A DNA stretch of 61,076 bases, counting the filler. It is 7 parts of 7 records of this genome, joined end to end, with 100 filler letters (N's around TTAATTAATTAA, not from the genome) between each part and the next. Parts side by side here need not be neighbours in the genome. Positions count along the whole stretch, not along the records: positions 39,983 to 45,595 come from SRR31156797_26140; 6 more parts are not named here. One strand, written 5' to 3'. This document shows, in pieces, positions 9,786-45,595 of the stretch. The notes under the pieces were generated by a model. The model ran no database searches, was not told the origin of the DNA, and saw only the letters and a list, made by a program, of their open reading frames with translations. Positions within the stretch are counted from its first letter, which is position 1. The number at the start of each line of letters is the position of its first letter. The translations under genes and the position numbers were made by a program.

Positions 9786-11492
9786 TCACTCTGAGATGCC
9801 GTATTTTCGCATCTTCCGCCACAAGGTGGTCCGGTCCATGTTGAGCAGGAGGGCGGTTTTTTTCCTGTGCCAGGCATTGCGGGTAAGGGCATCCAGGATC
9901 AGTTGCCGTTCCAGGGCCTCTTCCGTATCCTCCGGTTCCTCCGGGGAGTCCTCCTGGGAGGCGGAGCGGTCCAGGATATAGGCTGGCAGGTGGCAGGGGG
10001 AGATCACATCCTCCTGGCATAGGATGATGGCGTGTTCGATGATGTTCTCAAGCTCCCGGATATTTCCCGGATAGCGGTAGTTCAGCAGGATTTTCATGGC
10101 GGCTTCGGAAATGTCGGGAAAGGGCTTCTTGGTGATGGCGGCCTGTTTTCTCATGAGGTGGCGGATCAGGAGCGGCAGGTCACCCCTGCGGCGGCACAGG
10201 GGCGGCAACTCGATCCTGAGCACGTTGAGCCGGTAAAAAAGATCTTCCCGGAACAGCTTTTTCTCCACCAGGGTTTCAAGCTTTCGGTTGGTGGCGGAGA
10301 TGATCCTGACATCCACCTTTTTCGTCTTCCTGCTGCCGAGGGGATAAAACTCCCGGTCCTCCAGCACCCGCAGGAGCTTTGCCTGGAGAGAGAGGGGAAG
10401 ATCCCCGATCTCATCCAGGAAAATGGTGCCGGTGTCGGCCTCGCTGAACCGGCCCGGCTTGTCCCTGTCCGCCCCGGTGAATGCCCCCCGGATGTAACCG
10501 AAGATTTCCGATTCAAGCAGGTTGTCCGGAATGGCCGCGCAATTCACCTTGACAAAGGGTTTCCCGCTCCGGTTGCTCTCGGAATGGATAATCTTGGCCA
10601 ACAGATCCTTGCCCGTGCCGGTGGAGCCTTCGATGAGCAGGGTGGATTCGGTCTTGGCCACCACCCTGACCATGTCGAAGATCTTCTGCATGGCGGGATC
10701 CTTGCCGATCATGTGATGGAACCGGTATTTTCCGGTGATGGCCCGGTCGAGCTGGTGGGCCAGGGTCATGTCCTGGAAGGCGGCAAGGGCGCCGATGATC
10801 CGTCCGTGATCGTTCAGGAGGGGAATGTAGTCACCGCTCACCGGGATGGACTCCCCCTGGGCGCTCAGGAGATCCCCCCGTATGGTCGTGGCCGGCACCT
10901 TGTTCTTCAACACCTCCCTGAGCACCCCGCAGGTTTTCTTCACATGCCCGGCAAAGAGGGTGGCGCAGTCCTTTCCAAGGAGCTTCATCCGGCTGAATCC
11001 GGAGATCTTTTCCGCGCCCCGGTTGAAAAAGGTGATGAGTCCGTTTCTGTTCACGGTGAAGATGCCCATGTTGAGGCTGTCAAGGATGATCTTCAGGCTC
11101 TGCTCCTCGTAGTGGATGCGGCTGACAAGTTCGCTGTAGGGGGAATGGTCCTGGAGCACGGTGACACATCCCTGCACCCTGCCCCGGCCGTCGAGAAGGG
11201 GGGCCCCCACCCGGGTCACCCGGTGTTTTTCGTCGATTTCGTCCAGGAACTCGATGTCCATGTCCCGGACATCCCTGGATTCCGGATCATGGAAGGGACA
11301 GGTGGAAAAACAGGGAATCCCGCAGAAGATCTCCTGGCAGTCCCCCCCGGAAATCTCATGTTCCTCGAGGCCGATGAGAATCCTGGCGCTGGTGTTGAAT
11401 CGCCGTATTTTCCGGTCGTCGTCGATGAGAAGGACACCGATGTTGAAATGATCCAGAATCTTGAGCCATTGATCGTAGAGGTTAAGATCCAT
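9786..11492 (-). CDS. PAS-PAS sigma54-dependent Fis-family activator
   Basis: Two PAS domains, GSTGTGKD Walker A, GAFTGA, FLDEIGD, C-terminal HTH. Confidence 0.95.
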   Translation of the reverse strand: MDLNLYDQWLKILDHFNIGVLLIDDDRKIRRFNTSARILIGLEEHEISGGDCQEIFCGIPCFSTCPFHDPESRDVRDMDIEFLDEIDEKHRVTRVGAPLLDGRGRVQGCVTVLQDHSPYSELVSRIHYEEQSLKIILDSLNMGIFTVNRNGLITFFNRGAEKISGFSRMKLLGKDCATLFAGHVKKTCGVLREVLKNKVPATTIRGDLLSAQGESIPVSGDYIPLLNDHGRIIGALAAFQDMTLAHQLDRAITGKYRFHHMIGKDPAMQKIFDMVRVVAKTESTLLIEGSTGTGKDLLAKIIHSESNRSGKPFVKVNCAAIPDNLLESEIFGYIRGAFTGADRDKPGRFSEADTGTIFLDEIGDLPLSLQAKLLRVLEDREFYPLGSRKTKKVDVRIISATNRKLETLVEKKLFREDLFYRLNVLRIELPPLCRRRGDLPLLIRHLMRKQAAITKKPFPDISEAAMKILLNYRYPGNIRELENIIEHAIILCQEDVISPCHLPAYILDRSASQEDSPEEPEDTEEALERQLILDALTRNAWHRKKTALLLNMDRTTLWRKMRKYGISE

Positions 11493-39982: not shown

Positions 39983-40008
39983 GGTTAGCGTAGCGTAACC
40001 CAACCTAC
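39983..40008 (-). repeat. GTAG-type REP element, truncated at the contig end
   Basis: Minus strand GTAGGTTGGGTTACGCTACGCTAACC: GTAG head plus palindrome. Confidence 0.55.
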
Positions 40009-40029
40009 AGGACGCATGCCAAATCCTTT

Positions 40030-40692
40030 CTATTGGTTGTTGAAGGCAGCCCCTTGCCGCTTCAGACTTTCAATGCCGGACACGGCCCTTATCAGGGCTT
40101 TGGAATAATGATCCACTTGTCCGGGGCCGTTATAAATCCTGGCAAACGATCGCCAGTCCTTGTTCCTTATTTCATCAAGCAACCGGTTGGCTTTTATGAA
40201 CCCGAAAAAACCGTCTACCTGCTCCAGGCAGCTATCCTGGAAAGCCAGGGCCATTTCACGGGCGTTTCCATGCCTGGTGGTCAGCCAGTTGAAACCCATG
40301 ATCTGAGGCAGCCCCCAGCTGGTGCTTTCAAGGGCGGCTTCAGGATTTAATTTAAAAGCCCGCGTAAGGTTGCGCCATTCAGACTTTTGACCGTTGCGCC
40401 AAACTTTCACGCGCCGGTCGGTCTTGCGTCTGAATACGTGAGGTTCAAAACGGATTATGACCAGGCCGTCCAAACCATAGGCCCGGCCTGATTCCACGGC
40501 GAATACAGCCAGGGCGGATTCAACCGGCAGACAGGCGCCTTCAGCCTGTACCGCGATCCCTTTTCCGTAATCGTTCCATAAGGAAATAATCCTCCTTTCC
40601 ATGGCCGTCCGTCCCCGCATTCCAATCGGAACGTCCGGCTGTGCAGTAGGCTGACGGGCAGCCCTGAATTCCATGTCGCCGACAGTTTTCAT
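40030..40692 (-). CDS. Phage endolysin, N-acetylmuramidase (DUF3380)
   Basis: AVESG, IRFEPHVF, STSWGLPQIMGFN, WRSFARIYNGP. Confidence 0.88.
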   Translation of the reverse strand: MKTVGDMEFRAARQPTAQPDVPIGMRGRTAMERRIISLWNDYGKGIAVQAEGACLPVESALAVFAVESGRAYGLDGLVIIRFEPHVFRRKTDRRVKVWRNGQKSEWRNLTRAFKLNPEAALESTSWGLPQIMGFNWLTTRHGNAREMALAFQDSCLEQVDGFFGFIKANRLLDEIRNKDWRSFARIYNGPGQVDHYSKALIRAVSGIESLKRQGAAFNNQ

Positions 40693-40707
40693 TTTTCCTC
40701 CCACATT

Positions 40708-40971
40708 TTATTGCCGCTGGCTCAACCAGCCCACGGCCACGGAAAGCAAGGCGGTCAGTATAGCCACGCCCCGGTTGAAAAAGGATTGGTCCTTTTTCAT
40801 AACCGCCTGCTCCTGTTTAATAAGGCCTACTTCGCTGACAAGACCGCCCATGCCGTTGCTTCCATGAACGGTTTTTTTCAATTCCGCATTGTCTTCGCAC
40901 GAATTTTTCAAACGCTCCTTGATAGCTGCCAGGTCGGTCAAAACCTGTTCCTGAAATTGTTTTTCAGTCAT
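40708..40971 (-). CDS. Holin-like small protein (coiled coil plus C-terminal TM)
   Basis: 87 aa with a C-terminal hydrophobic helix, immediately upstream of the endolysin. Confidence 0.55.
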   Translation of the reverse strand: MTEKQFQEQVLTDLAAIKERLKNSCEDNAELKKTVHGSNGMGGLVSEVGLIKQEQAVMKKDQSFFNRGVAILTALLSVAVGWLSQRQ

Positions 40972-40996: not shown

Positions 40997-42508
40997 TCAT
41001 TTCAGCTTTGTAATTTTCATCTCCGCATAAATCTCACTCCCCAATCCGGCCGCCCGGCCCTGGCCGTTAGCGGCTTGAGTAGTATTGCATCTATGCTGCA
41101 GTTCAATTGTCGATACGGTATTCAACCTGATCATGCCCGATAAAAACGACCTGTTTTGAACATCGGCCCCGCCGGCCAGTTCGGATGTGCCAAGAAGCAG
41201 GGTTTCCGATGCCGAAACATTCCATAATCTTGTTTTATGCCCCGCAACCCTGTATGCCGGCGCAGATGCTTCAATAAAATACCGGGCGCCTGGAAGGATA
41301 ATCCGCCACGAAACGGGATCTAAAATCGCGCCGGGTATCTGGTCCGCCTGGGCGCTGTCAAGCGCACGCCTTTGCCAATCTCCGCTGGTAAAATTACCGC
41401 CGTTAGTCCCGCTGGAACGCAAATCCTGAACATGCATAATTGCACCGGAAAAACAATTATCCCGGCAGGTAAAGATGCTGTTGTCCTTTATGTTGGCGTT
41501 TGCGCCGGTTTTAAATGCTCCAATCAGTCGATGCCTTGTATAATCCGGTATAGCCGCCCTGAAATTGGCCCCGGTATTAGACGTGTCAAAGCAGACATCC
41601 GCATCTGTCCCGTCATCCTTGGCTACAGCCAATACATAGTATTGTGAATCCGAGCCCAGACTTTCTCCCGGCGCCATGCCTCCGGCGTTGTTTCCAATCG
41701 CCCAGGCAGCGTCGGCGCGTTTGCACAGGTTATTAAATGAAATATCAATCTGGTCATCTGCATCGCGGCACGCGCCGGTTATTTTAATATCGTGATCAGA
41801 GTCCGCGCCCGGCTCCAATATTATGGATGTATAGTCTGTCGGGTATTTTGTTTCGTCTATTTCAAGGGTTGCTTTGACAGCGGCCGCCGAATCGTCATCA
41901 AGTATCGATTCCGCAAAGGCCGACACCTTGGCCGCTTCAAACGCCCCCAGCGTTCCCCTGGCCGAGGACGCCGATTCATCATCAAGGACCGTTCTCATGA
42001 AAGCTGATATACCTACGCCGGCAGGCACACTTGCGGAATTGATCAAACCGTCGCCGGCTGCATTCCAGGCCAGATGCTGTCCCGCGGCAGGCGCGGGCAG
42101 TTCCAATTCTTCAAGGCTTGATGACGCCGGGACCTTGGCCGACCTTGCGACCTCCTCATTGAGCATCTGTGCAATCATGGTCAGCTTGTCAAACGCGTCT
42201 TCGACCACGTCGGCCGGGAAATCGTCATTATCCACCAGGTCCATTTCCTGGGTGGCTTCCACGTTTCGTAGAATCGTCACTTTGTGTCCGATTGCCGGCG
42301 CAACGGTTAATGATATCCGCCCTCCACCGGCGTCTCCGGCGCCGCTTACGGTATAATCGGAGCATAAAGCCAGTTCCGTATCCACCGAATCCAGGTCGGT
42401 CAGGATCACTCTAAGGTCGTCGTCCTTAAGGATTTTAAAGGTATAGTCGTACCCGGTCCCGCCGGCGCTTATGTATTGGTTTCTGGCAATGCTGGAAGAG
42501 ATAGTCAT
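40997..42508 (-). CDS. Phage tail fibre protein
   Basis: N-terminal podovirus-type attachment region (YDYTFKIL, DYTVSG, EDAFDKLTMIAQ); AAGGAG RBS. Confidence 0.8.
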   Translation of the reverse strand: MTISSSIARNQYISAGGTGYDYTFKILKDDDLRVILTDLDSVDTELALCSDYTVSGAGDAGGGRISLTVAPAIGHKVTILRNVEATQEMDLVDNDDFPADVVEDAFDKLTMIAQMLNEEVARSAKVPASSSLEELELPAPAAGQHLAWNAAGDGLINSASVPAGVGISAFMRTVLDDESASSARGTLGAFEAAKVSAFAESILDDDSAAAVKATLEIDETKYPTDYTSIILEPGADSDHDIKITGACRDADDQIDISFNNLCKRADAAWAIGNNAGGMAPGESLGSDSQYYVLAVAKDDGTDADVCFDTSNTGANFRAAIPDYTRHRLIGAFKTGANANIKDNSIFTCRDNCFSGAIMHVQDLRSSGTNGGNFTSGDWQRRALDSAQADQIPGAILDPVSWRIILPGARYFIEASAPAYRVAGHKTRLWNVSASETLLLGTSELAGGADVQNRSFLSGMIRLNTVSTIELQHRCNTTQAANGQGRAAGLGSEIYAEMKITKLK

Positions 42509-42712
42509 AAAAAACTCCTTGGGAAAGAGGGAATAGTGGCCTATATCTCAAATAAATGGCCATCTATTTCATCCAAAGACACCGCCTTATATAATTACTA
42601 TTAGCCATTATTCATGACTTTGACTGGAGCAATATTTAAGGCGTTCGCGTTAATCAATAAGAGGCGGCAGAGCCGCCAAGACATTGCGTTCCCAATTACC
42701 CTCCCTTTCCGC

Positions 42713-42742
42713 TTGATTTTATACCCTGTAAGAATTTATTAT
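42713..42742 (+). promoter_or_regulatory. Promoter of ncRNA copy A
   Basis: TTGATT-18-TATTAT. Confidence 0.6.
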
Positions 42743-42749
42743 ATTCATT

Positions 42750-42845
42750 GGGGTTGTGACGCTGGTCGGTTTTCCGGCGAAGGGCGTTCAGCCTCAGGCT
42801 GTCCAATAAATGCTCCGGTCTGCCCGTCGGACGTCGTCACCCCCC
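42750..42845 (+). ncRNA. Structured RNA family copy A (intergenic, just past the stop of the polyvalent gene)
   Basis: Closing stem gggg..gtgacg/cgtcac.cccc; core gggcg-tt-cagcc-tca-ggctg-tcca...tgccc. Confidence 0.75.
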
Positions 42846-42869: not shown

Positions 42870-45595
42870 TTATTTTTTATTTTCTATCCGCCTTACTTCA
42901 GCGGACAATTCCCGAAGTTCAAGCAATGTCATTTCTGAAAAGGGATTCTTGCAGGCCGGATCATAGCGGCTCAGTAAATTCAATATCCGTTTCTTGCGCC
43001 CCAAAGACACGCCGGTCGATTGCAGAACCTCCATGATAAATCGCTTGCTCCTGGCGAATTCTTCCCTGCCCCTGGAAAGCACCCTTATTTCAATGGCCAG
43101 TCGTCTCTGGTTATTCCGGCGTTGCCCGGCCTCCTCAAGCCTGCCATCCTGGTAGGCCATCCTGGCCGCCATATCTTCGTCCTTCAAACGCCTTTTCATG
43201 TTATCATTGCAAACAGCTAATTCCTCTTCCGTCCAAACTTCGACCCGCTGTTCCATCGACTTTTTCAGTTCATCAGAACTGCGCATTTGGCGGCTGTCAT
43301 CATTAGTCAAGGCCCGGATTTCCATATCAAGCAATTCAATATATTCATCAGTAATGCCCAAAACTTCAAAATCGATCACGGCCAAATATTCCTCTTCAGC
43401 CGTATCCAAATAGTCCTCCACCAATTCCTTTTTAGAAGGTGTTTCCAAAAGCGCGGCCAACAAATCACTACTATTTTTAAAGCCGTATTCGGTCCGGTAT
43501 TCCTCGGCAAGCAAATCCAATGACAGCTTTCCGTTTTTCCACACCAGGCCCACGCGCTTTTTCGTAATTTCACGAATGGTTTCTTCTTCGTAGTAAAATA
43601 AAAGATCCTCTTCGCGCAGCCCCCCGCGCTTCACAATATCATCCATCAGCACATGCACGGGATGCTGTTTGGCCATTTCCCGGCCCTGGGCGCGCCAGCC
43701 GGCCATTCTGGATCCGACTTCGCATTCCCGTTTTTTCTTCACCGCCTCTTCAGCCGCCCTGCCGGCCCTGGCCGCCATTTCCTTGTATTCATCGGTTTGA
43801 AAAAATGCAAAAATCTCCCGGCCTTGTTCATCGATCCGGAAACCACCCTTAATCCGGCCGCCGCGATCTTGATTCAACTGATCGGATTCGTCAGGCTTTT
43901 TTTCTTGTTTTTTTTCATTTTCGGGAGTATTTTTAAATAGAGGTATATACTGGTGAACTCCATTGAGAGATGGGCGTTCAGCTTCCAGCTGTCCACTAAA
44001 GACGCCGAGTCGCCCGCCGGCCGCCAATGAAATACCTCTAATTTTTTCTTCTACACGGCCGCCGCGTTCTTGACTCAACTCCTCGGATTCTTCAGGCTTT
44101 TTATCTTGAATTGATCCCTGTTCAGATGTAATATCAGAGCTTGAGGGTGTGAGGGGACGCCTGCTAAACCGGGATGGGCGTTCAGCTTTGTGCTGTTCAA
44201 AAAATTGGCCGGTCTGCCCGTCGGTCGTCGCCGAATCACCCTCAATTATTTTTGTTATAATTTTTTTTGTCCCTTTAGGCGCATTCTTAGCTAATGTTTG
44301 ATAAGCAAAATTCTTACTTTTTGCTTTCCAAAATCCGTCTACATAGAGTAATTCGGGGTTTTCCTTGGAGGGTGGAGTCCATGATCCAACAAGGGTGTAA
44401 TATTTTGCGCCAATCTTTTTGATAAAGCCGAAACCTTGACTATTTATGTATTTTTTATTCCTTTTAGCTCTATAAAATTCATCTGCTTCATTAACTACTT
44501 CTCTTACAAAGAGCCAATCCTCGAACGTTAAATCTAAATGCTTCTTCATCTCACTGTATATTTCAAAAGCCGGTATGAGTATTATTGGAGATTCGATTTC
44601 AAGACCACTAATTTGTTTCATTTTTTGGACCATCTCAGGTGAGATTCTACGTCGGCGAAAGCATTTACTCTGATCGAACTCTTTACCTTGCGACATTACC
44701 CATTCAGCAAATTCCGCCTCATCTTCATGGTCGGTCGGTTCCATGGCATAAAGCCATCCGCCTTCCGGAACCTCTTCAGCCCAGTCCGACATCTCCAGGT
44801 CGCGGCGGGCTTCGTCCTCCCGCTTTTTCTTCACCGCTTCTTCAGTCGCCCTGCGGGCCCTGGCCGCCATTTCCTTATATTCATCATATCCGTCGTCAAT
44901 TATCGCCTTGTTTTCAAACAATGGCTGATTATTCGCCAGTTCCCGGGCCGCACGGATTTCATCTTCCGTGGACAACATCCGGTCAAACACACGTCGCATT
45001 TCATCGGAAAGTTCCACATCCAAACTATCCAGGGTTTTATAAATACGCAGAAGCCAATCCCGGAAAAGATCAAAGACGCCCTGCAACTCGGGAATAGGCG
45101 CCCGTCCTTCGGCAAGATATTTTTCAAAACCTCTGGCCCATTTTTCATGCTGAGCTCGAGTCCATTTCTGGCCGGGCTTTGCCCCGACCCAGCGGCAAGC
45201 GGTTTCATAATCCCGCCTCACCCAGTCCGGCGAATTTGGATCATTGGCAAGGTCTTCCAGATCCCGCAGGAAAAAATGCCCGATCTCATGCGGGGCAGTT
45301 GAAAAATCCTTGGCCTGGAAAAATGCCAATATCGCCCGGCCCTGTTCATCAATCCTGAAACCGCCCTTAATCCGGCCCCCGCGCTCTTGGTTCAACTCCT
45401 CGGGTTCGTCAGACTTTTTATCTTGATTTGATCCCTTTTCGGGTGTAATATCTTTATCGGGGAGAAGTGGTGTCCCGGACTCGTTACCGGGAATCGGCCG
45501 TTCATTCATTTTCGAATGTTCAAAAAATCGGGCGGGTTGGCTGTCGTCGGACTGTTTCTCCCCATTGTTTTTTTGTTCAATAAATTCTTTTCTTT
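42870..45595 (-). CDS. Large polyvalent phage protein, 5' truncated (zincin-like HExxH region, putative PBECR-like RNase domain, repeated linkers)
   Basis: Frame stays open from the contig edge (RKEFIEQK...) into the 879-aa ORF; FSTAPHEIGH, HEKWARGFEKYLAEGRAP; position next to the tail fibre. Confidence 0.7.
43905..43933 (+). promoter_or_regulatory. Promoter of ncRNA copy C (intragenic, antisense)
   Basis: TTGTTT-17-TATTTT at the position homologous to the other copies. Confidence 0.5.
43938..44040 (+). ncRNA. Structured RNA family copy C (antisense, inside the CDS)
   Basis: Perfect closing stem tagaggtat/atacctcta then a T-run; core gggcg-tt-cagct-tcc-agctg-tcca...cgccc. Confidence 0.78.
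44106..44134 (+). promoter_or_regulatory. Promoter of ncRNA copy B (intragenic, antisense)
   Basis: TTGAAT-17-TAATAT. Confidence 0.65.
44141..44245 (+). ncRNA. Structured RNA family copy B (antisense, inside the CDS)
   Basis: Perfect closing stem ttgagggtg/caccctcaa then a T-rich tail; core gggcg-tt-cagc-tttgt-gctg-ttca...tgccc. Confidence 0.8.
45423..45451 (+). promoter_or_regulatory. Promoter of ncRNA copy D (intragenic, antisense)
   Basis: TTGATT-17-TAATAT. Confidence 0.65.
45459..45563 (+). ncRNA. Structured RNA family copy D (antisense, inside the CDS)
   Basis: Closing stem ggggagaa/ttctcccc then a T-run; covaried core ggccg-tt-cattc-attttc-gaatg-ttca...tggct. Confidence 0.75.

Follow-up and report, generated by a model that had tools for sequence, protein, structure and literature searches.

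Small antisense RNA genes beside BECR-type RNase domains in phage polyvalent proteins: candidate RNA antidotes

The window analysed here is a stretch of 61,076 nucleotides (nt) that consists of seven contigs joined by N spacers. The relevant phage contig (positions 39983-45595, 5.6 kb) carries on its minus strand, in this order, a large open reading frame (ORF) that is open at its 5' end, a tail fibre gene, a small ORF and a muramidase gene. Within and directly behind the large ORF lie four RNA cassettes (A to D) on the opposite strand and an AT-rich insert that is probably an RNase domain of the BECR (Barnase/EndoU/colicin/RelE-like) type (Table 1). The pairing of structured antisense RNAs with BECR domains is general across five Pfam families. 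As it recurs across many phages, the RNAs may be an RNA-based antidote to phage-delivered nucleases. 

Table 1. Features of the phage contig, in window coordinates
Feature	Position	Strand	Remark
Bbp10-like polyvalent internal virion/ejection protein gene, 3' part	42870..45595	-	907 aa, frame open at contig edge
Zincin-like conserved segment	44880..45400	-	HEIGH at nt 45290; zincin label from motif and PMC5512222
AT-rich ~140-aa insert, probable PBECR-type (BECR-fold) RNase domain	44241..44680	-	Atlas PBECR2/PBECR3/MuF_C clusters, 0.91-0.93
RNA A, intergenic orphan after stop codon	42750..42845	+	Region in relative X2 unlike, 132 nt shorter
RNA B, directly 3' of insert, predicted cognate RNA	44141..44252	+	Folding, shared motif
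RNA C, tandem with B, no domain before it in the window	43938..44046	+	Directly follows variant domain in X2
RNA D, slot just before zincin segment, after RKEFIEQKNNG	45459..45575	+	Its domain lies off the contig
Promoter of RNA A	42713..42742	+	TTGATT-18-TATTAT
Promoter of RNA B	44106..44134	+	TTGAAT-17-TAATAT
Promoter of RNA C	43905..43933	+	TTGTTT-17-TATTTT; weakest, 7/12
Promoter of RNA D	45423..45451	+	TTGATT-17-TAATAT; X2 identity breaks right after -10 box
Tail fibre gene (context)	40997..42508	-	phrog_1640, E 1e-38
Small holin-like ORF, before endolysin	40708-40971	-	Holin label inferred
N-acetylmuramidase endolysin (context)	40030..40704	-	PF11860, E 2e-35

The polyvalent protein gene, its insert and the four cassettes

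The large ORF encodes a polyvalent (ejection) protein of the Bbp10 type known from podophages. It matched phrog_9880 of PHROG (E 5e-57, residues 63-257), and a second match was to the Bordetella phage BPP-1 protein Bbp10 (E 1e-25). A polyvalent virion protein is in line with an earlier, sequence-only reading of the locus that had pointed to large polyvalent proteins of phages and conjugative elements. The HExxH zincin-like segment is homologous to phrog_9880/Bbp10, and the gene lies upstream of the tail fibre and lysis genes. Homologues are polyvalent proteins of 1,600-4,300 aa, with LPD22-bearing ones among them. After HExxH, the ORF comprises 805 aa (~360 of them inserted) versus ~1,100-1,400 aa in most homologues. 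It is duplicated internally (141 nt, 82% alike; RGGRIKGG/YKEMAARA twice) and has a short C-terminal core. This short form is not a one-off assembly error, since the same path from the core into the tail fibre gene was found in a relative, X2. X2 denotes contigs, ~90-95% alike, of a run from another study, and its layout was read from joint tables. The sequence-only reading had seen no immunity ORF, and none of at least 50 aa was found on the minus (coding) strand between the stop codon of the large ORF and the tail fibre gene.

The insert was found as described before: it is in frame, AT-rich (GC 0.348 vs 0.535 and 0.491 in the flanks), has the peptide reported there and runs directly into cassette B. 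In the ESM Atlas, it was grouped with PBECR2, PBECR3 and MuF_C clusters (0.91-0.93, 184-194 shared features). Its ten best named Atlas matches all belonged to one clan, a result that a third of shuffled proteins also reached. A PBECR domain should have a His in its N-terminal helix and a Ser/Thr in its last strand. A His is present in KKHL. The putative last strand, LYVDGFW, lacks the usual Ser/Thr.

The earlier PBECR-like call has the Atlas features and the position of the insert in its favour. Pfam, PHROG, phmmer, hhalign and a structure model neither confirmed nor contradicted it. The insert matched nothing in Pfam or PHROG, including the profiles of PBECR1-5, MuF_C and LPD3. Our own hidden Markov models reached a best E of 0.03 (single sequence), and alignment to six PBECR3 domains by hhalign gave a probability of 1.5%. 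The fold comparison suggested by the sequence-only reading yielded a single-sequence model with a pLDDT of 45 and a helix-three-strand core, for which Foldseek returned no match at E<=0.001; in a BECR fold, a sheet of 4-5 strands comes after a helix. In a further structure search with this model, the VIA Z was at most 4.8 (CdiA-CT), and ParE/RelE-type entries were among the ties. No homologue of the insert was found by phmmer (1.84 billion representatives), by near and longer word searches or among viral contigs. From the Atlas features and the position, the insert is probably a BECR-type RNase domain.

The cassettes are ~100 nt long, and all four carry GTTCA-hairpin-TGTYCA-NN-AAA-N11 on the plus strand. 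As units they span 42750-42845 (A), 44141-44245 (B), 43938-44040 (C) and 45459-45563 (D). A 4-bp stem surrounds the shared core, the hairpin is variable (4-5 bp), and a variable segment with a constant length of 11 nt lies between fixed motifs. The core stem of D shows a compensatory change from G-C to C-G and contains a G-U pair that is possible only on the plus strand. Closing stems of 9-13 bp with differing sequences, followed by a U-rich tail on the plus strand, are present in B, C and D; the outer stem and tail of A are weaker. The folding z on the plus strand was -1.6 for A, -2.7 for C, -3.0 for B and -1.7 for D, each below its minus strand value. However, 3 of the 14 control windows taken from this ORF were also below -2, so that z by itself gives modest evidence.

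In front of each cassette, the plus strand has TTGnnn-17/18-TAnnnT, a pattern that ends 4-7 nt before the closing stem, occurs at 18 of 11,106 positions of the contig and had not been mentioned in the sequence-only reading. These promoters are paralogous and therefore do not represent four independent events. A generic promoter scanner listed that of A alone among them. Owing to their own sigma70-like promoters and U-rich tails on the plus strand, the cassettes are read as small-RNA genes antisense to the protein gene. The layout given in the sequence-only reading was correct (B abutting the insert, C in tandem, D after RKEFIEQKNNG at the contig edge). Its idea of in-gene RNAs held for the presence of four structured cassettes but not for their strand: they are antisense transcripts with promoters of their own, neither parts of the mRNA nor an array in the style of type III systems. 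A sense-strand reading of the RNAs was dropped because the promoters and G-U pairs indicated the plus strand.

Rfam and ARAGORN found nothing in the window, and c4 antisense RNA, ribozymes and tRNA as the identity of the cassettes had no support from them. Three pattern scans for homologues of the window RNAs returned 3, 29 and 51 loci, none of them full-length; a descriptor found 0 of 160 loci, and blastn against phages gave noise. A model of the window RNAs, R1, recovered only its four training copies in 99 loci and gave weak matches in 5 genomes (E 0.09-0.8). The blanks of R1 are weak evidence because the model comprises only 8 pairs and 4 sequences.

Antisense RNA genes at the ends of BECR domains in other phages

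A first set was compiled from 160 loci with the zincin segment. The motif was parsable in 142, 116 were non-redundant, and the 111 with sufficient upstream frame were Pfam-scanned over at most 380 aa. The set contained 32 BECR ends (17 LPD3, which are presumably BECR-like, 7 MuF_C, 6 PBECR3 and 2 PBECR1). It omits six partial ART matches and one partial PBECR5 match whose ends could not be placed. A promoter was counted if a TTG -35 box, a 17-nt spacer and a (T/C)A...T -10 box, with at least 8/12 matches, lay on the antisense strand 30-230 nt past the domain end.

By this rule, antisense promoters followed 26 of 32 BECR ends and 0 of 39 ends of other domains in these proteins (ART, GNAT, GGDEF, zeta and others). 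The controls gave 0/32 on the sense strand, 0/32 inside domains and 4/308 in core windows. After synonymous recoding of the 32 BECR ends, 2.35 were expected, compared with 26 observed. We regard the position, the promoter and the structure of the RNAs and their restriction to BECR domains as shown.

The rule was applied unchanged to further sets. For PBECR2 (401 genomes, one phylum), it was satisfied at 10 of 26 ends and at 9 of the 16 above 40 bits. Most misses had near-consensus boxes by eye. Among the weak matches, 9/10 had no promoter, and several were apparently followed by a small protein ORF (translation only). The PBECR2-linked RNA is positioned after the stop codon. Fresh MuF_C sets gave 4/5 (one duplicate locus dropped) and then 26/32, with 1/32 on the sense strand, 2/32 inside and 6/128 at distal positions. 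For the latter set, one duplicate and three weak or cut loci were dropped, an N-masked locus was counted as a miss, and two near-identical pairs were kept. Within MuF_C, the distance to the domain end varied little and was mostly 57-92 nt. The co-occurrence of RNAs and BECR domains across genomes, proposed as a check in the sequence-only reading, was therefore found in the first set and again for PBECR2 and MuF_C.

Of the window cassettes, the rule accepts B and D; the score of C is 7, and the spacer of A is 18 nt long. Bbp10 of BPP-1 has a PBECR1 domain, TAGAAC-17-TACAAT and an RNA with a closing stem, outside the strict rule. The predicted antisense RNA is ~80 nt long and starts near position 10081 of NC_005357. 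The class is spread over prophages of Desulfobacterota and Negativicutes, BPP-1 and Shiga toxin (Stx) phages. Rfam gave no match for the cassettes of 17 + 14 homologous loci.

Several of these loci showed further features. PBECR2-linked RNAs of seven loci (L248, L251, L253, L254, L259, L260 and L272) are intergenic and have a common CCGG(U/C)UGGGCC-like motif; it loosely resembles the 3' part of the window RNAs and is a candidate second family. At L265:2102-3198, a CRISPR array directly adjoins a solo PBECR2-like gene that has an antisense cassette; this bears on the idea of PBECRs interacting with CRISPR RNAs. In two Negativicutes loci (L309, L316), the MuF_C gene is frameshifted or truncated with promoter and RNA intact; these are possible orphan RNAs. 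Short forms of the polyvalent gene are closely followed, on the antisense strand, by a tRNA-Leu gene (L088:5992-6076) and a tRNA-Ser gene (L109:4089-4183), which are probably prophage attachment sites.

When folded from the predicted +1 onwards, the sequences form a long closing stem and have a U tract. We analysed 38 predicted RNAs (19 of the 26 new MuF_C RNAs and the first-set RNAs of at most 125 nt; 15 shuffles each). The median z was -4.5, 34/38 were below -2, and the antisense strand folded better than the sense strand in 27/38 (p=0.014). By eye, the fold differs by domain family. MuF_C RNAs are hairpins of 65-80 nt, in which a 4-bp stem carries a loop of 7 nt (consensus AAUUGGA). In 24 MuF_C RNAs selected by hand, the apical stem was 95.8% paired with 8 double changes, above 500/500 shuffles and all slid controls.

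Expression was traced in one homologue. The gene ECs1242 (8.4 kb) of prophage Sp5 in E. coli O157:H7 Sakai has MuF_C at residues 1750-1839. Its predicted +1 is at ~1301614 in NC_002695.2, which equals 1301472 in the older numbering with an offset of 142. The predicted start and an antisense transcription start site (TSS) from differential RNA sequencing (dRNA-seq) agree to the base, given that offset, and TTGCGA-17-TATTTT lies upstream of both. This TSS is listed as 1301472(-) with an enrichment of 24.07 in the dRNA-seq table of PMC7547250. There, ECs1242 has two antisense TSSs; the other one, 1300538 (enrichment 9.39), follows no BECR match. As the predicted start coincides with a measured antisense TSS, the class is expressed in a lysogen, based on this one homologue.

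These results bear on the reading that the RNAs have no function and are by-products of gene duplication and of amino-acid motifs in linkers. The window copies do lie within duplicated DNA, and the z of A and D is weak. Against this stand the 2.35 of 32 obtained by synonymous recoding, the RNAs located after stop codons, the covariation of the MuF_C stem and the measured TSS of ECs1242. For the class, the reading is already largely refuted, and we regard it as extremely improbable.

The ECs1242 RNA also overlaps EcOnc36, 1301433-1301515(-), an Hfq peak in five datasets (PMC4104026). Hfq binding and the richness of prophages in small RNAs (sRNAs), both from that paper, would fit ordinary trans-acting prophage sRNAs or decoys that gather in unstructured linkers and are unrelated to domain activity. 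So would A and C, which have no adjacent domain in the window. The 0/39 at other domain ends, the 4/308 in core windows and the narrow distance to the MuF_C domain end argue against such sRNAs, and we consider them very improbable.

A cis-antisense action of type I-like character is the main rival and is unlikely in our view. Here, mRNA that leaks from the toxic gene in a lysogen would be destroyed or blocked by the RNAs or by convergent transcription itself, and extra copies would add silencing. The geometry is strictly antisense, with A, B, C and probably D complementary to one transcript. At MuF-PBECR2 genes, the RNA overlaps the 3' end, and in Bacillus the antisense RNA RatA overlaps the 3' end of the toxin gene txpA. 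The MuF_C loop contains a YUNR-like UUGG. The Hfq crosslink of EcOnc36 (PMC4104026) fits as well. Silencing of a whole mRNA, however, needs no RNA per BECR domain, and none was found at the 39 other ends. Moreover, the RNAs lie mid-gene, away from any ribosome-binding site, and perfect complements need neither family-specific folds nor a loop that is nearly fixed across phyla. The Hfq link, the 3'-overlap geometry and the constraint shared by RNA and peptide in the MuF_C loop (see below) keep this explanation alive.

Joint exchange of RNAs and domain halves

RNAs are exchanged jointly with the C-half of the domain, and displaced copies are retained. The order in X2 is domain'-E-zincin-domain (variant C-half)-C-B, and in the window ?-D-zincin-domain-B-C. 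In X2, 262 other letters, which lead into C, stand in place of 466 nt (the C-half of the insert and unit B), and B is located downstream. At the D slot of X2, identity ends right after the -10 box, and a fifth cassette, E, with the same core follows. Likewise, three alleles of Stx phages have the domain N-half and promoter in common and differ in C-half and RNA. The sequence-only reading had taken A and C as orphan immunity cassettes. This idea is favoured by the rearrangement in X2, where C follows a variant domain and the displaced B is kept downstream, like orphan immunity; the region of A is unlike there and 132 nt shorter.

Phage Mu gp30 is described as an inactive PBECR (PMC5512222), and the antisense promoter is absent there; a Mu-like MuF_C domain at locus L288, in which the His is retained, is accompanied by an RNA that includes a T-loop-like arm, in a comparison of one pair only. 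By eye, this RNA (L288:1779-1881, minus strand) is tRNA-like, with a 7-bp acceptor-like stem and a GUUCGA T-arm. ARAGORN called no tRNA in it; it is possibly a tRNA mimic. The homologue of phage phi24B was found in virions by proteomics, in a preprint that labels Muf-C a metallopeptidase, unlike PMC5512222.

The fixed-length 11-nt variable segment in all four window RNAs could also suit a cofactor or guide, which would be bound and packaged with the ejection protein and would direct or license the nuclease in the infected cell. According to PMC5512222, the targets of PBECRs may be specific RNAs, and inactive PBECRs are suggested to bind RNA. Immunity, however, accounts more easily for orphan RNAs that lack a domain. 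In addition, a guide-like segment is absent from the MuF_C RNAs, which are plain hairpins, and the RNA is made in the lysogen, where the late gene is presumably off. We consider this explanation quite improbable.

The remaining contig showed repeats at two places. Between cassette A and the tail fibre gene (42652-42695) lies a short palindromic repeat resembling repetitive extragenic palindromic (REP) elements; it occurs in multiple copies in runs X1 and X2 (summed depth 770 and 133), and the matching contig of X1 stops there. A second REP-like sequence forms the contig end directly after the endolysin gene (39983-40020) and suggests a prophage end in a host chromosome. An unrelated contig (24773-30094) encodes a hybrid histidine kinase of 1,773 aa with four periplasmic solute-binding domains. 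Genes for methylmalonyl-CoA mutase, an RND pump, a sigma54 activator, DctM and a MenD-like protein were found on other contigs. According to gene content and GC (33% to 64%), the window contigs come from mixed organisms.

Proposed mechanism, known systems and significance

Judged from sequence, we lean slightly towards the reading that the small folded antisense RNAs are cognate RNA antitoxins that bind virion-delivered BECR RNases. Each cassette would be a self-contained small-RNA gene on the antisense strand of the linker after a phage BECR RNase domain. The RNA would adopt a substrate-like shape, bind its cognate nuclease and block it. Made constitutively from the prophage, it would guard the lysogen against leaky expression, against nuclease produced during virion assembly and against injection of this nuclease by a superinfecting relative. 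A naive cell would receive the protein without the RNA, and the nuclease would be active there. The domain C-half and the RNA would be swapped as one block between conserved flanks, and displaced RNAs such as C and A would be kept as orphan immunity against other alleles.

Several points weigh against this antitoxin reading. The BECR fold of the insert is only predicted, and Asp-Gly stands at its Ser/Thr site. Outside X2, neither the insert nor the window RNA motif had a homologue in the searches made. The promoter rule was fixed after the 32 first-set BECR ends had been viewed, and the Fisher p of 5e-14 for 26/32 vs 0/39 ignores kinship, although domains that are related cannot count as independent samples. 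In MuF_C, the conserved loop is at the same time the coding sequence of a conserved LQLP peptide, by which RNA and protein constraint are confounded. Hitchhiking could account for the joint exchange of the RNA with the domain half. Finally, the Sakai RNA overlaps an Hfq-crosslinked segment, as base-pairing sRNAs do.

We consider a more far-reaching version unlikely: an RNA immunity code of phages for polymorphic, virion-injected BECR RNases, with a gene for a tRNA- or substrate-like inhibitor antisense in the linker of every active domain, orphans that build up in lysogens as memory against related phages and, in some families such as that of the window with its 11-nt segment, target programming.

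The antitoxin reading can be compared with known systems. Polyvalent proteins with PBECR domains (Iyer et al. 2017, PMC5512222) share the host protein, zincin-like hub, mosaic BECR domains and virion gene context; the available part of that paper names no RNA partner and no immunity factor, whereas antisense RNAs are present here. In type III toxin-antitoxin systems (ToxIN, CptIN, TenpIN; AbiF/RCd22, AvcID), a structured RNA neutralises an enzyme by binding, as proposed here. The type III RNA is a co-transcribed upstream repeat array that is cut by the toxin. By contrast, the RNA described here is a single, separately promoted antisense transcript of ~65-150 nt 3' of the domain, and the BECR domain is inside a virion protein. 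No type III antitoxin RNA family of Rfam matched in the window or in the cassettes of the 17 + 14 loci.

In the type I system txpA/RatA, a convergent antisense RNA overlaps the toxin transcript, and the toxin is a small hydrophobic peptide. The cis-antisense overlap is also present here, but the RNA lies mid-gene and tracks the domain family, and the overlapped frame is a protein of 907+ aa, not a small peptide. MuF toxins and the orphan modules of contact-dependent inhibition (CDI)/Rhs systems (Jamet et al. 2017, PMC5576092) are similar in their phage-borne exchangeable toxin domains, adjacent immunity element and downstream orphans. Their immunity is a small protein ORF, whereas here the putative domain is internal, no ORF of at least 50 aa follows the stop on the coding strand, and the slot holds an RNA gene. 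That paper gave no explanation for its Ct_MAD extensions. If the antitoxin reading holds, the system has type III-like logic, yet it lacks the type III array, the type I toxin and the protein immunity of MuF systems.

No report of RNAs tied to PBECR, MuF_C or LPD3 was found in the literature searched, which did not cover subscription papers. Such RNAs are not mentioned in the available parts of PMC5512222, PMC5576092, PMC7547250, PMC4104026, bioRxiv 10.64898/2026.08.28.747851 and 10.64898/2026.04.10.717836. PMC4104026 lists EcOnc36, which overlaps the MuF_C-linked RNA of ECs1242, as an Hfq peak and, in the available part, gives no function or domain link.

Up to 26% of polyvalent proteins contain PBECR domains (PMC5512222). 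As these domains are internal and leave no room for an immunity gene, the survival of phage and lysogen against their own injected RNases needs explaining. An antisense RNA gene in the linker would, if true, solve this problem of self-protection. It would define several new families of non-coding RNA, none of which is in Rfam, and would bring the BECR fold into the range of RNA antitoxins; superinfection exclusion may gain a further layer. Even if the cis-antisense explanation were true, phage structural genes would contain an undescribed control element that is specific to these domains.

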